This document shows, piece after piece, positions 9,217 to 23,512 of a DNA stretch of 64,000 nucleotides. The DNA lies in the sequence record PQ821640, one strand, 5' to 3'. The notes under the pieces are model-generated. The model was not told the DNA's origin. It saw only the letters and a list, made by a program, of their open reading frames with translations, and searched no databases. The stretch is from Escherichia phage SD2. Position numbers and translations under genes: made by a program. How positions within the stretch are numbered: the first letter of the stretch is position 1; every line of letters begins with the position of its first letter.

Positions 9217-10344
9217 ATGAAATACACGATTTATGGTGATATTGTAAGTGTAAATAAAGATATGGGTGTGGAATCTAATTATCTTCCACCTGGATTCTAT
9301 ACTGTTAGTCGTGATCCCCTTGGCAATTATTTTTTAAGCCGTGGTAATCTAACAGGTGTACCGGATGTTCTGTATGGTGAAACAGAAAAACGAGCAAATC
9401 ACGTTATCCGTACATTCCATCGCCGGAGTGCACAAGGTAAAAATACAGGTTTGCTTCTGACAGGAACTAAGGGCAGTGGTAAAACTATGTTAGCCAAGCT
9501 CATTAGTCGTGACCTTGTAGAAGAAGGTATTCCAACTATTATGGTTACTCAAGCCTACAGTGATGCTAATTTCATTGAACTTATTAGCAAGATCACCGAC
9601 AAAGCAGTGATTATTTTTGACGAGTTTGATAAAGTGTATGAGAAGAAACAAGATCAAGAAGCACTTCTCACTTTGTTAGATGGTACTGGCAGTGGTAATA
9701 AACTGTTTATTCTAACTAAAAACAGTGGCTTTATCTCTGAATTCTTTCTAAATCGTCCTAGTCGTGTGTTTTATAATTTTAATTATGATAAAATCTCACT
9801 AGAAACTATGATTGACTATTTAGATAAAAACCTGGATAACAAAGCACACTTTGATAATTTCCAAAGACTTTGGGATGTAAGTTTAGAGTTGTCCTTTGAT
9901 GTGATCCAAGGTATAGTAGAAGAACTTAATTTCTACCCTGATTTATCCTTTAAAGAATGCATCTCTATGATGGGCGTTTCTTTGGGTGGTGGTAATAAAT
10001 GGGATATCAGCAGCGTTGTTATTAATGGAAAACTTCAGAAAGTTAGCTGGGTATCTAGTTGGCATAACTTCACACCTGCAATCTTTTTAGGTGGTTCGTG
10101 CACACTAGACGTGTACTTGTCATCTCCAAGTGATGCAGACTCTAAAGAAGCCCTTGCTAATAGCTCTTACGTGGTTTTTGATGATGAAGGCGATGCTCGA
10201 ATTCCATTGAATGCGACAAAAATGAAAGCAGATCTTATTACAGGCGGTAAAATCGTTGTGTTTAGTGATGATCCAGAAGATTCTTTCCGTATTGTTCTGG
10301 AACCAACTATCACCAATGGTGCAACTTTGGCAAGTGTGTTTTAA
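9217..10344 (+). CDS. AAA+ family ATPase
   Basis: Walker A GTKGSGKTMLAK; Walker B VIIFDEFD. Confidence 0.75.
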   Translation: MKYTIYGDIVSVNKDMGVESNYLPPGFYTVSRDPLGNYFLSRGNLTGVPDVLYGETEKRANHVIRTFHRRSAQGKNTGLLLTGTKGSGKTMLAKLISRDLVEEGIPTIMVTQAYSDANFIELISKITDKAVIIFDEFDKVYEKKQDQEALLTLLDGTGSGNKLFILTKNSGFISEFFLNRPSRVFYNFNYDKISLETMIDYLDKNLDNKAHFDNFQRLWDVSLELSFDVIQGIVEELNFYPDLSFKECISMMGVSLGGGNKWDISSVVINGKLQKVSWVSSWHNFTPAIFLGGSCTLDVYLSSPSDADSKEALANSSYVVFDDEGDARIPLNATKMKADLITGGKIVVFSDDPEDSFRIVLEPTITNGATLASVF

Positions 10345-11408: not shown

Positions 11409-11960
11409 ATGCGGATTACTGATAAGTATGTGTTCTTCTTTTCAGCAAAAGATGAATTTAGCAACTGGTATCTATCATCTTTTATTGAACCTTTAGCACC
11501 CAAGTATAATAATTCTATTACAAGTTCTGTTGAATTTACTTGTGTGGAACAATATATGATGTGGAGAAAAGCATGTTTGTTTTATGATTACAGTATTGCA
11601 TCTTCTATTTTAACCGGAGATCTAAGATATACAGGAGAAAAAGAACAAGCATATTATAAGCGACTAGGCAGATTAGTTAAAGATTATGATGAAGATACCT
11701 GGACTTCTTTACGGGAGAAGATTGTCAAACGTGGTTTGTATCTTAAATACACACAAAATGAAGATCTCAAAAATAAACTTATAACCTACGCAGATAAGGA
11801 GTTCGTAGAGGCAAGCCCTTATGATTCTATTTATGGTATCAAAATGGGGATGTGGGATCGTGACGTGGAAAATAAGGACTGTTGGAAAGGACAAAATCTT
11901 TTAGGAAAATGGCATACAGACCTTGCTGTTTATCTAAAAGCACAATCTGATATTTCCTGA
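11409..11960 (+). CDS. NADAR (YbiA-like, DUF1768) domain protein
   Basis: FFFSAKDEFSNWYLSSF, EQYMMWRKA and GQNLLGKWHTDLAVYL align with my recollection of E. coli YbiA; AAGGAGG SD. Confidence 0.7.
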   Translation: MRITDKYVFFFSAKDEFSNWYLSSFIEPLAPKYNNSITSSVEFTCVEQYMMWRKACLFYDYSIASSILTGDLRYTGEKEQAYYKRLGRLVKDYDEDTWTSLREKIVKRGLYLKYTQNEDLKNKLITYADKEFVEASPYDSIYGIKMGMWDRDVENKDCWKGQNLLGKWHTDLAVYLKAQSDIS

Positions 11961-12020
11961 TATTTTGAAAATTTTTATTTTTATAAAAAGGGGTGTGGGT
12001 TTCATGTACGGAAATTCACC

Positions 12021-12041
12021 CTCTGAATAATATATTCAGAG
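12021..12041. repeat. perfect inverted repeat CTCTGAATA-ATA-TATTCAGAG
   Basis: 9-bp stem, 3-nt loop, read directly; overlaps a second palindrome CAGAGTA...TACTCTG (12037-12062). Confidence 0.6.
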
Positions 12042-12174
12042 TAAATATTATTTTGTACTCTGTTAATAAATTATTTAATTTGTTTGTTGGATTATGATAT
12101 CTGGTTTTTAAAAGGCATACTATCTCTTAACTACTACTTATAACAGAACAGTAAAATCATTTTTATAAAAAGGA

Positions 12175-12382
12175 CAAAATTATTTAAAGTTTTTACAGAT
12201 TTTTGGATACAAATTTTGAAAATGAAAAGTTCAAGTTTGGTCAAAATTATTTAAAGTTTTTGTATGTATTTCTATCCAGATTTTGAAAATGAAAACTTCA
12301 ATTTTTTAAAAATTCCCCAGTTTATTTAAAGTTTTTTTACCTTTTTCCGTAGAAAAATCAAAAATGAAAAGTTCAATTTCGT
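12175..12382. repeat. three tandem direct repeats of about 68 bp
   Basis: Each unit begins TTATTTAAAGTTTTT and ends TTTTGAAAATGAAAAGTTCAA; AT-rich, non-coding. Confidence 0.7.
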
Positions 12383-12400
12383 GTTTTTATGGGTATGCGT

Positions 12401-12515
12401 ATGATAATCATTCTCATTTGTAAATGAGAATCATTATCATTTAATTATGTAAATGATAAGCATTCTCACTAAGAGAATGAGAATCATTAGCAAATGAGAA
12501 TTTTTCTCATTTGCA
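12401..12515. promoter_or_regulatory. cluster of five or more Fur-box-like dyad motifs
   Basis: ATGATAATCATTCTCATT, AATGAGAATCATTATCATT, ATGATAAGCATTCTCA, GAGAATGAGAATCATTAGC, AATGAGAATTTTTCTCATT; compare E. coli Fur box GATAATGATAATCATTATC. Confidence 0.45.
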
Positions 12516-12772
12516 GAATAACGCGCAGGGGCGGTGTTTGTCTCGCGCTCCCGTGTCCCCTCGCCATACAATAAGAATAGCATAACCAACAACAAAAGCA
12601 AGCGATTATTTTTATCTTTACATTTCTTTACAAATTTATTTTAGACGAGCTACCGGCGATCAACCTTCCAACCAGTGCCCCTGGTATGTTAGCCCCGCCT
12701 TTACGCCGTGGGGGTGGCGCTTCCTCTTCTGTATGTAAAACAGTATAAGCCCGATCCCTGGGCTTGTCAAGA

Positions 12773-13039
12773 TTATTTTTTGTTTTCTTGCCAGGATAGG
12801 ACACCTAACCAAAAATACATGTCGCCCCGTGCCCCTGGCGGGATCTTGCTTTCCCCGCCGCCACTGCAAGCCCATAAATAACCATTTACGAACGTATCAA
12901 AGTGATCTATCTCTTCCACCTTATGATCGCCCAGGTTGAGAACGGTTTCAACCTTTAAGCCCGTTGCGCTTGCTACCTGGTGCACCGTGCCGCCTTGCCA
13001 GCCCAATGAGTGCATGAGATGTAAAGGAGTATTTGTCAT
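12773..13039 (-). CDS. hypothetical protein inside a GC-rich, compositionally atypical segment
   Basis: 88-aa ORF on the opposite strand to the surrounding plus block, within 12520-13130 which is visibly GC-richer; overlapping track ORFs in other frames judged spurious. Confidence 0.4.
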   Translation of the reverse strand: MTNTPLHLMHSLGWQGGTVHQVASATGLKVETVLNLGDHKVEEIDHFDTFVNGYLWACSGGGESKIPPGARGDMYFWLGVLSWQENKK

Positions 13040-13149
13040 GGTATCGCCCTTTCTTTGATGTGCGCCCTGGTTGGCGCGGTAGAAAGATAATAGCCGTTTC
13101 CTTTATAGATAGCAAGCAAAAAAGAAATGAAAAAAGATTAAAAAAATGG

Positions 13150-13209
13150 TTGACGTTCCTCACCTGGTAGCGTAGTATTCATCTTGTCGAGGGGCGGCAA
13201 TAGTGCCGC
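13150..13209 (+). promoter_or_regulatory. promoter (TTGACG-17-TAGTAT) plus 5' hairpin GCGGC-AATAGT-GCCGC
   Basis: Read directly; upstream of ORF 13234. Confidence 0.6.
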
Positions 13210-13233
13210 TCATAACAGAAGAGAGAAATAATC

Positions 13234-13506
13234 ATGGCATCATATAGCGCATCAATGATCGTAGCTGGCATCACTGGTAAACCTATGCGCGGTGGCGGAT
13301 CTTTCGCTAACATCAATATTGATGGACGTTTATCCCTGGACGCAGCGATCACAGTGGCACGGGAAACGTTTAAAAAAGAATGTAATTTCAATAAACAAGA
13401 TTATCTCGGTTTCGCTATTGAAAAAACCGCGCGATTTGTGGATTATAAAAGCCCGAAAATGATCGACACTACACTAAAAGCGCAAGATGTAGCGTTTTTG
13501 CTTTAA
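13234..13506 (+). CDS. hypothetical early protein
   Basis: 90 aa; preceded by promoter-hairpin cassette. Confidence 0.7.
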   Translation: MASYSASMIVAGITGKPMRGGGSFANINIDGRLSLDAAITVARETFKKECNFNKQDYLGFAIEKTARFVDYKSPKMIDTTLKAQDVAFLL

Positions 13507-21785: not shown

Positions 21786-21988
21786 CCTAAATAAAGATGA
21801 TAGCTTTTACCTATCAAAAACGTTCACCGAAAAAAGTGAATAGATCGCGGTATCGAGCTAATCAAGGAGCAGATGAACAACCATACCATGAAGATCATAA
21901 GGCGCTTACAACGTGTTTTAGACCGCTTATTTTTAATTTCTTCATGTAACTATCTGGCAAAAACAGCCTTTTTCTTGTCTTTCCTCTT

Positions 21989-22065
21989 AAATGATAATCA
22001 TTCTTATTTATAGCTGATTATTTATGCAATAAACTGAATAATGTAATAATGATAATCATTCTTAA
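21989..22065. promoter_or_regulatory. two direct copies of AATGATAATCATTCTTA (Fur-box-like)
   Basis: At about 21989 and 22047 inside an AT-rich non-coding region. Confidence 0.45.
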
Positions 22066-22890
22066 CTTAAGACCATCTAACCTATAAAATAATAAGTTAT
22101 CTAACTAAATTAAAACTAATTATCTCACCTTTATTTATAACTTACTGTTACTATCTCATTGATAACCTTATATTAAACAACAATAACTAATATAAATTAT
22201 TACTAAGCTAAATATAATCTATCTAACCTTTAAAACTATAATTATAATCTATCGAATTGTTGCACAAAGTAACTATTAAATTGTTAGTAACATTACTAAA
22301 TAATTAATATCCTATCTATTTATGATCTAATCTTTACCTTCCTATTTATTACCTAAATAATCATTTCATACCGTAATCATTTCATACAATAATTATAACA
22401 AGAAATATAATTAACAAGCGTATCATTAGCAGCCTATGCCGGACACATAGGCGGCTAATAATAACGCAACTACACACCCCACATAATAACCATCACCGAT
22501 AGTTATTATTTGTGCTTATGTAGCTTGCAACAACTGCAAGCGCAACAATATACATGGTATATTGTATTCCCTTACATTGTTGCGGTGCGTTATTATTAGC
22601 TAATGTTTGGAACATTGGCTATAATATAAGCTATCCAATAATAAACATAGTGAATAATAACCCTGATGATCATAATGCGCCACCTTCCAGGGGGCGCTAT
22701 GTGAACACAAAGAAATCTTTCTTGTCAAGAAAAATATTACCATTATTGCGCAAAATTATTTACATCTGAATAGATGGTTTTTCATACTATTGCCCCATAT
22801 AGCCTATCATTTGTTGAGCCTACTTTCTTAAAAGCGCAATAAATTAGAATTATCTTGATTTTTAGGGCGTTTTATAGTATAGAAAATATG

Positions 22891-22915
22891 CAAATGATAA
22901 TCATTATCAGTTATC
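22891..22915. promoter_or_regulatory. Fur-box-like site AATGATAATCATTATC
   Basis: 16 consecutive matches to the E. coli Fur consensus as I recall it. Confidence 0.5.
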
Positions 22916-23070
22916 TTCCACGGGTGGCACTATTTCACGCAGGATCATTTCATTTGGCAAGGTGTATATAGATGTTTAGACTTGCCAAGCCATTGATTTG
23001 CTTAGAATTTATCTGTTTTGTTGTGAGTAATGCCTTTCTTGCTCAGAAAATAATCAAAAGTCTTATAAGT

Positions 23071-23114
23071 CATTGAATGATAATGCAAATGATAATAATT
23101 CTCATTGATATTTG
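23071..23114. promoter_or_regulatory. degenerate tandem Fur-box-like motifs
   Basis: GAATGATAATGCAAATGATAATAATTCTCATTGATA. Confidence 0.4.
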
Positions 23115-23512
23115 AGGGGGACGGTCAGCAGAAATCGGGGGGCGCTGAAAATCGCGTTAAGCACCTCTCGCAAGCGAGCAGTATTTTGCGGCAAGTTATT
23201 GATATTATTGACTTTACGCTTATGAAAAGGGGGTGTGTCGAAATAAATCGGGTATACCGGAAAATTTTTGTGGCATAGATATTTATTTGTCTATATTATG
23301 TACAAAGGGGTGTGTTAAAAATATTAGGTATATATAGAATAATTGATAGGGAAATCCTATACTAAATCCTTCATTATTGCAGCGGGTGAAAGACAGAATC
23401 GAAGATGCAAATAATGCTTGCATTGGATAGAAATGTCTGTATAGTGGTTTGCATACCGCGCACGACGCGTTTCCATTTTCAATAAAATGTTAGCATTATG
23501 GGGAGGTAGAAA

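Follow-up and report, generated by a model that had tools for sequence, protein, structure and literature searches.

The Fur box is a textbook element, and temperate phages are already known to carry single Fur operators on their cargo genes. Here we describe an array of five Fur-type boxes in a virulent phage, within a stretch of 64,000 nucleotides from Escherichia phage SD2 (sequence record PQ821640), which as a whole is called the window below. Among the closest described systems are the multi-box Fur operators of enterobacterial iron genes. Three of them lie in divergent promoter regions under Fur control (fepB-entC, fepD-entS, and fepA-fes), and the aerobactin iucA operator and the array upstream of ftnA, where Fur displaces H-NS, are further multi-box Fur sites. 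The stx1 gene, carried by a temperate phage, is also Fur-regulated. On lambdoid phages, the phage-borne Fur box of sitABCD joins phage DNA to the host Fur regulon (PMC6969025).

The array in the window has the same 19-bp motif with a 7-1-7 core as the enterobacterial operators at fepA-fes, fepD-entS, and fepB-entC, and matrices made from the two sets recognise each other's sites. Both consist of several adjacent or 6-nt-overlapping boxes. Unlike those operators, the phage array belongs to a virulent phage, has no iron gene next to it, and does not overlap an evident promoter; its five boxes are 17-29 bp apart and stand at a fixed offset to a phage-specific GC-rich element. In the cargo of temperate phages, an iron-related or toxin gene has a single operator at its promoter, whereas the arrays described here are free of cargo and occupy non-coding hubs and the genome end. 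Lambda-type origin iterons are similar in another way, with several 19-bp dyads at a spacing of about 23 bp, an AT-rich neighbour, and inward transcription. They differ in being specific, in each phage, for its own initiator, whereas the motif considered here is common to unrelated phages and equals the site of a host regulator.

Fur-box arrays of consensus strength in the hubs or terminal repeats of virulent phages are not described in the searchable literature. The literature found on Fur together with phi92, rV5, or T5 first-step transfer comprises only bacterial iron-regulation papers and the temperate-phage sit operon.

A five-box array at the inner edge of the early region

The window region shares 96-98% identity with phi92-like myoviruses (Stephanstirmvirinae, Justusliebigvirus), with Escherichia phage W22 as the best match. 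The array sits in a 1.27-kb gap (11961-13233) from which conserved genes are absent, between a homologue of phi92 gp223 and the first small early gene (Table 1). In the record of phage alia, two "repeat_region" features are the whole annotation of this gap. The initial annotation had placed a cluster of overlapping Fur-box-like motifs of roughly 19 bp at the left border of the early block, and this position holds, as the array forms the inner edge of a right-terminal early region of ~10.7 kb. The block contains ~27 small early genes and is bracketed by boxes. Those genes that adjoin the array read toward the right genome end, which we place 10.7 kb from the array.

Both strings given as examples of the motif are present (ATGATAATCATTCTCATT at 12401-12418 and AATGAGAATCATTATCATT at 12423-12441), and the overlapping copies resolve into five 19-bp dyads within 12400-12511, with some of the matching 19-mers offset by 6 nt. 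The dyads share the consensus AATGA(G/T)AAT-N-ATT(C/A)TCATT. Their 15-bp 7-1-7 cores match TGATAATnATTATCA at 11 to 13 of 14 positions, and the overlapping 19-mers of the array match GATAATGATAATCATTATC at 14-16 of 19. Box 2 is the reverse complement of box 1 except at the centre base. For box 3, the counterpart in alia and in phage UAB_1 is a better version of the motif (TGATAATCATTCTCA).

The boxes are strongly enriched in this gap. One matrix was made solely from boxes of phages other than SD2 (the other-phage matrix) and was applied with a cut-off of at least 12 bits; expected counts were taken from 1000 dinucleotide shuffles. The gap contains five sites at this threshold versus 0.005 expected. 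The whole window contains ten versus 0.39 expected, nine of them in two non-coding gaps. A second matrix, made from 11 published Gram-negative iron boxes (PMC10665472; the published-box matrix), places 10 of the 12 best window sites in the same two gaps, which together cover 4.4% of the window. Shuffles that preserve dinucleotide and local composition argue against chance, or low complexity of AT-rich DNA, as the source of the boxes.

A 54-amino-acid open reading frame on the minus strand (12437-12601) overlaps the boxes; we judged it not to be a gene because box number and spacing differ between relatives. ARAGORN predicts no tRNA in the region, and the best result of an Rfam search of the region was a spurious match to rpsL_ricks (E = 0.53).

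Recognition by Fur matrices

The Fur resemblance proposed in the initial annotation proves to be strong, both by match to the consensus and by matrices from published and phage boxes. Scoring with a Fur matrix had been suggested as a check, and the phage sites score like known operators: the published-box matrix gives them 14-21 bits, versus 14-23 bits for the E. coli ent/fep operators. The reverse comparison was made with a matrix of 33 phage boxes, run over 50 kb of E. coli MG1655 (595001-645000). Its top six hits (11.6-20.5 bits) all fall in fepB-entC, fepD-entS, and fepA-fes, and the seventh-ranked hit reaches 6.1 bits.

Conservation within the box is highest at the symmetric pairs G4/C16 (0.88), A7/T13 (0.98), and A8/T12 (0.93), and the flanks are AT-rich. 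In crystal structures of Fur with DNA, Arg57 contacts guanine, Tyr56 contacts thymines, and Lys15 enters a narrow minor groove (PMC4506495). The best-conserved box positions agree with these contacts, and the variable ones (position 6, G or T; position 14, C or A) lie outside the contacts listed there. Variation in one half of the box is independent of that in the other, as complementarity at symmetric positions is just what unlinked half-sites would give (positions 6/14, 0.46 observed versus 0.46 expected), which fits a site for a dimeric protein and not a selected hairpin.

The tandem-box pattern also turns up in bacterial genomes, in 93 stretches that represent many phyla. At four of six sampled loci the boxes adjoin iron genes, namely those for a hemophore, a ferritin, an enterochelin esterase, and a TonB-dependent receptor. 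In the searchable literature, the box strings are found in iron-regulation papers only. The feature is real and highly non-random and, judged by its sequence, consists almost certainly of sites for host Fur; we consider it very probable that host Fur would bind them.

Distribution of the motif among phages

The identical motif, often arrayed, is present in Phapecoctavirus ESCO5, Klebsiella phage KP2025, Vequintavirus FFH2, and Seunavirus GEC_vB_MG, as well as in T5, the T5-like phage Gostya9, and the Klebsiella jumbo phage Muenster (Alcyoneusvirus), where the array lies 0.8-1.3 kb inside the terminal repeat. The groups that carry it (Stephanstirmvirinae, Vequintavirinae, T5-like Demerecviridae, and Alcyoneusvirus) are unrelated and have only enterobacterial hosts in common. 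A further 23 stretches with the motif come from IMG/VR, on contigs of 4 to 149 kb, and the G+C content of these stretches ranges from 21 to 54%. Since the named isolates share a host clade, a host factor is the economical answer, and the protein that recognises the boxes is likely to be of host origin.

A conserved module around the boxes

The boxes are part of a module whose layout is kept across the Stephanstirmvirinae, Vequintavirinae, and Seunavirus. From left to right it comprises A-tract direct repeats, one to five boxes, a 13-bp linker, a GC-rich element, and one or two leftward sigma-70 promoters. Triple repeats analogous to those in the window are found left of the boxes in KP2025, ESCO5, FFH2, and GEC_vB_MG. 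The linker is kept as nnGAAT(A/G)nCGn in the three phage groups and in other viral contigs.

The proximal box starts 32 bp to the left of the GC-rich element in every phage group examined. Further boxes left of the element are at 61, 90, and ~119 bp in several phages and at 49, 73, 102, and 125 bp in SD2, and box copy number differs between relatives, from 1 to 5. Among the spacings between neighbouring boxes in all non-redundant phage arrays, 29 bp (30 cases) and 23 bp (14 cases) are the most frequent. Across all phage arrays (loci L003-L056) we also observe that box spacing is quantised at 17, 23, and 29 bp, and the 6-bp steps correspond to the hexamer unit of the classical Fur-box model.

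The core of the GC-rich element spans phi92-like, rV5-like, and Seunavirus phages and otherwise unrelated viral contigs. Within 72 nt to its right, a leftward TTGnnn-16/18-nAnnnT sequence is present in 24 of 26 distinct copies and a rightward one in none; the hexamers are retained and the spacers are variable. In a shuffle control, 4% of shuffled segments reach the stricter cut-off of 8/12 matches. The window has two such leftward promoters, P_B and P_A (Table 1). Equivalents of P_A were recognised by eye in KP2025 (TTGACA-18-TATAAT) and GEC_vB_MG (TTGCAA-17-TATAGT). Because of the leftward promoter to its right, we predict that the GC-rich element most probably serves as the 5' leader of a non-coding RNA that is transcribed leftward and enters the boxes, which lie 57-170 bp downstream of the P_B start. 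Taken singly, each copy of the element can form a hairpin on either strand. Rfam has no match to the element. Across 15 diverse copies, RNAalifold gives no consensus pairs, and we therefore treat the element as conserved sequence and not as structured RNA.

In Vequintavirinae-type phages, the single box fills the spacer of a rightward promoter-like sequence (TTGAAT-18-CAGAAT), in which CAGAAT of the linker is readable as a -10 element; its start would land on the GC-rich element. The -35 counterpart of this TTGAAT in SD2 is poor (GCAAAT). Inside the array itself, promoter overlap amounts to weak 9/12 promoter-like matches formed by the boxes themselves.

Just upstream of P_B is a tandem repeat of TCTTTACA that is kept in KP2025, ESCO5, GEC_vB_MG, and L042 and that adjoins the Fur boxes in Muenster. 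Copies lie at ~1036-1057 in locus L032 and at ~847-869 in locus L042. It looks like a binding site of the response-regulator type, presumably resembling OmpR sites. A hairpin at 12747-12765 ends the leftward gene 12773-13039 and sits in the P_A spacer, an overlap of terminator and promoter.

Boxes at the genome ends

Genome ends were assigned by reference to Salmonella phage UAB_1, a phage of the same genus with 147,769 bp and annotated 343-bp direct terminal repeats. The counterpart of this repeat aligns to the window at 22817-23159. The PD06 record begins, and the W22 and VEcB records stop, at about the left boundary of the repeat (~22817), so the window spans joined genome ends.

In the whole UAB_1 genome, boxes of at least 15 bits occur in three places only, with ~11 boxes per genome. 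They are found in both copies of the terminal repeat (positions 77 and 272 of each), as a pair 1.1 kb from the right end, and as the five-box array 11.6-11.7 kb from the right end, or 7.9% of the genome. The window has a second cluster as well, which was absent from the initial annotation, in the non-coding gap 21950-23510 (boxes at 21990, 22048, 22893, and 23082/23088). The first two lie ~0.8 kb before the terminal repeat and have counterparts at 146585 and 146643 in UAB_1. With 21.2 bits, the box at 22893 is the best site of the window by the published-box matrix, and the extended site that follows it scores 11.4-14.9 bits in three registers by the same matrix. Read by eye, this terminal-repeat array stands after a TTGCTC-18-TTATAA sequence.

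Comparison with the T5 injection-stop region

Fur-type boxes of 15-29 bits are present in T5 (AY587007) at palindromes E (9473), G (9577), and I (9612) and at an additional site at 9508. The 19-mer of palindrome G is identical to box 2 of the window. These palindromes lie in the untranslated Repeat Region 3, the injection-stop signal tract, which comprises palindromes E-J and the DRC/DRE repeats; the shear point of first-step transfer is calculated at 9618 and a major nick, at 7.9%, is beside the palindromes (Davison, bioRxiv 10.1101/866236). The same work considers the function of the conserved T5 repeats impossible to guess and emphasises DnaA boxes, and a 2026 T5 paper still describes the region by repeats, palindromes, and DnaA boxes alone. 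The stop in first-step transfer needs no new protein synthesis. We found no report in the accessible literature that links the T5 palindromes to Fur.

The T5 region and the array region of the window are both large tracts of untranslated DNA with many direct repeats and palindromes, and each is situated ~7-8% from a genome end. In the window, the untranslated gap carries three direct repeats and five dyads and lies 10.7 kb from the inferred right end (11.7 kb, or 7.9%, in UAB_1). Both the T5 region and the phi92-like hubs contain or adjoin a terminal repeat. T5 differs in that it has the A1/A2 system, DnaA boxes in pairs, and a terminal repeat of 10 kb with the pre-early genes A1, A2, and dmp, whereas the terminal repeat of phi92-like phages has 343 bp. 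The DnaA box TTATCCACA is absent from 11961-13233 and 21950-23510 even when one mismatch is allowed. No A1/A2 homologues were recognised among ten early proteins, which match only PHROG families of unknown function, in a search that was not exhaustive for remote A1/A2 homology. The T5 parallel is suggestive and incomplete, as the hubs have no DnaA boxes and the terminal repeat is short.

In T5, palindromes E, G, and I together with the DRC repeats (9473-9631) are consensus-strength Fur boxes. In Gostya9 (1174-1420), the boxes run on into 23-bp repeats that bear half-boxes. In the window, a perfect DnaA box (TTATCCACA, minus strand) directly abuts an isolated Fur-like site (16/19) at 267-295, inside a homologue of a UvrD/REP helicase gene. 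This pair recalls the arrangement of DnaA and Fur sites in T5 and may be due to chance.

Possible roles of the array

From the identity, enrichment, conservation, and spacing of the motif, its restriction to the terminal region, and the orientation of the promoters, we infer that Fur probably occupies the array and may act there as a roadblock or insulator that depends on iron. Our best explanation, to which we give about an even chance, is that the host-Fur array would serve as an iron-gated barrier at the border of the early region. In an iron-replete cell, pre-existing dimers of Fe2+-Fur would coat the five boxes and form a protein-DNA block downstream of P_B. The block would halt leftward non-coding transcription, as well as read-through from the upstream operon, at this border. 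Under iron limitation, apo-Fur would depart and the border would open. The barrier mechanism together with its iron dependence is a more tentative proposal, which we consider less likely than not.

If host Fur binds the array, a lytic phage would sense how iron-rich its host is, or take advantage of this, from the start of infection, which would be relevant to phage therapy in iron-poor body sites. The module would then be a phage control region assembled from host-regulator sites, and the T5 injection-stop palindromes, unexplained since 1987, would gain a concrete candidate ligand. Through the array, both the T5 injection-stop region and iron sensing in lytic phages become amenable to experiment.

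Several points weigh against the iron-gated barrier. No convincing promoter overlaps the boxes in SD2, and the classical geometry of a Fur operator is absent. As the boxes lie off any obvious promoter, downstream of P_B and beside direct repeats, a simple operator model is not established. A roadblock 57-170 bp downstream of a transcription start is, to our knowledge, an undocumented mode of Fur action. The position of array and promoter relative to each other varies between phages; the L043 array is just upstream of a consensus promoter and the Vequintavirinae box is in the spacer of a promoter-like sequence, which argues against one simple transcriptional mechanism. The predicted leader of the leftward transcript lacks conserved secondary structure, as judged by RNAalifold. 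Finally, the confinement of boxes to the genome end and to the 7-8% point, as in T5, points at least equally to a role at DNA ends or in DNA entry.

Such a role, similar to that of the T5 injection-stop region, is the first alternative, and we consider it unlikely on balance. Being present in the cell beforehand, Fur could bind the arrays of the terminal repeat and of the 7-8% point while the DNA enters, and there it would pause or organise transfer of the first segment, form loops, insulate, or protect the end, and iron-dependent transcription would be secondary or absent. It would account for the presence of the same boxes at the T5 shear point and nick, for the 7.9% position of the UAB_1 array with the remaining strong boxes in or near the terminal repeat, for the location of the Muenster array inside its terminal repeat, and for the shared character of the T5 and window tracts; a stop that proceeds without new protein synthesis also fits a pre-existing host factor. 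Yet two-step transfer is not known in phi92-like phages, the early genes beside the array read toward the right end and not inward, and neither the paired DnaA boxes nor the 10-kb repeat typical of T5 has a counterpart here. How a cytoplasmic protein could halt DNA entry is a difficulty, and the 7.9% coincidence is based on two phage groups. A wider proposal is that Fur-box arrays are a general cis-element of virulent enterobacterial phages, marking the genome end and the boundary of the first-entering or early segment, with bound Fur as the missing host component of the T5 injection stop and its equivalent in phi92- and rV5-like phages, and with delivery or the early start being iron-dependent. 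We regard this as a long shot.

A second alternative is that replicating genomes, with their ~11 strong boxes per copy, would draw Fur off the chromosome and so induce iron uptake and an iron-sparing response for the benefit of iron-dependent phage enzymes. Fur is reported at several thousand copies per cell, which a few hundred genome copies would match, and the Fur titration assay is a classical precedent for multi-copy boxes that pull Fur off. The box scores equal or exceed those of native operators, and ribonucleotide reductases of class Ia and class III, which require iron, are among the phage's gene products. This scheme has no need of the fixed spacing in the promoter module or of the restriction to genome ends, and titration would occur late in infection. 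T5 has the same arrays yet destroys host DNA early, according to a recent report (bioRxiv 10.64898/2026.04.02.716235), so induction of host genes cannot be the purpose in T5. We find such a sponge improbable.

The initial annotation had left a choice between Fur and a phage protein, with the motifs as operators or iterons, and here the Fur resemblance holds, the coupling of phage expression to host iron status is a prediction, and the phage-protein half is disfavoured. A lambda-type origin would combine 19-bp dyad iterons at ~23-bp spacing with an AT-rich unwinding region and activating transcription. The array has five 19-bp dyads spaced 17-29 bp apart beside AT-rich repeats, promoters that read into it, and an iteron-like variation in copy number from 1 to 5 between relatives; most early proteins are without assigned function, so that a phage binder could be among them. 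But the motif is the same in unrelated phages and in bacterial iron promoters, which a phage-encoded binder could explain only if it were shared and had precisely Fur's specificity. With E. coli Fur as the tblastn query, the whole UAB_1 genome, the window, and 12 kb of T5 gave only noise (E at least 1.9). No regulator was recognised in the ten early proteins matched to PHROG families, and Pfam finds no DNA-binding domain in them, only DUF7249 and a sub-threshold Peptidase_C25. The small leftward gene 12773-13039 is not conserved in the Vequintavirinae, although these keep the module. We regard binding by a phage protein as about as improbable as the sponge.

Least probable of all is that the dyads act as nucleic-acid structure, as hairpins in the leftward RNA or as cruciforms or single-stranded DNA hairpins that end or stabilise transcripts or hinder DNA passage: single-stranded 12396-12519 folds into three hairpins (-30.2 kcal/mol, z = -7.8), boxes 1 and 2 form a 19-nt inverted repeat with 95% complementarity, and box 5 gives an 11-bp stem straight after the GC-rich leader, yet there is no excess complementarity within boxes, the stems are AU-rich with no U-tracts after them, and it is the Fur consensus that is conserved and not any palindrome.

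Other features of the window

Coordinates of the features discussed above are collected in Table 1.

Table 1. Features of the array region and of the genome-end region of the window; bit scores are given for the other-phage (OP) and published-box (PB) matrices, and fractions are matches to the 7-1-7 core (of 14) or to the 19-mer (of 19)
Feature	Position	Strand	Details
phi92 gp223 homologue	11409-11960	+	Left neighbour of gap 11961-13233
Three A-tract-rich direct repeats	12159-12379		67- and 75-bp spacing; repeat search, 72-73% identity; repeat_region in alia
Fur-type box 1, TATGATAATCATTCTCATT	12400-12418		Core from 12402; 13/14; OP 23.9, PB 15.6
Fur-type box 2, AATGAGAATCATTATCATT	12423-12441		Core from 12425; 13/14, 16/19; OP 28.6, PB 20.3
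Fur-type box 3, AATGATAAGCATTCTCACT	12452-12470		Core from 12454; 12/14; OP 20.3, PB 20.0
Fur-type box 4, AATGAGAATCATTAGCAAA	12476-12494		Core from 12478; right half weaker; 12/14; OP 15.1, PB 18.1
Fur-type box 5 (proximal), AATGAGAATTTTTCTCATT	12493-12511		Core from 12495; 11/14; OP 21.9
Linker, TGCAGAATAACGC	12512-12524		Between proximal box and GC-rich element; sequence conservation
GC-rich element, core GCAGGnnCGGTGnTTGTCTC	12525-12565	-	Conserved; 21 IMG/VR stretches
Promoter P_B, TTGCTT-16-TATTCT	12574-12601	-	Sigma-70 type; predicted start ~12567, toward boxes
Tandem direct repeat, TCTTTACA-N3-TCTTTACA	12615-12634		Just upstream of P_B
Promoter P_A, TTGACA-17-TATACT	12742-12770	-	Second leftward promoter; 11/12 match
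Lone leftward gene, phi92 gp224 homologue	12773-13039	-	88 amino acids; PHROG of unknown function; beside array region
First small early gene	13234-13506	+	Right neighbour of gap 11961-13233
Fur-type box	21990-22008		OP 24.3, PB 16.6
Fur-type box	22048-22066		OP 15.0, PB 19.7
Counterpart of 343-bp direct terminal repeat	22817-23159		Physical genome end; alignment to annotated UAB_1 repeat
Fur-type box in terminal repeat, perfect core TGATAATCATTATCA	22893-22911		14/14, 17/19; OP 22.1
Extended Fur-type site in terminal repeat, GATAATGCAAATGATAATAATTCTCATTGAT	23079-23109		Followed by G-rich segment; 13/14 at 23090; OP 25.1 at 23088

The stretch just before the terminal repeat (21950-22800) has the lowest GC content of the window (29%) and no credible open reading frames. 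It is rich in short repeats, for example TAATCATTTCATAC, which occurs twice at ~22357-22386.

The sequence AAAGGGG(G)TGTG is present three times, on the plus strand only (11988, 23227, and 23305). Every copy is non-coding and follows the gp223 homologue or the terminal repeat. It may serve as a promoter specific to the phage or as a processing signal.

Among the database records that resemble the window are several labelled as Campylobacter phages (H36, H54, H57, H74, and H75; for example MG065656 and MG065639, each 146,366 bp), with 94-96% identity over the matched stretches. The host label of these records is probably wrong, or they are contaminants.

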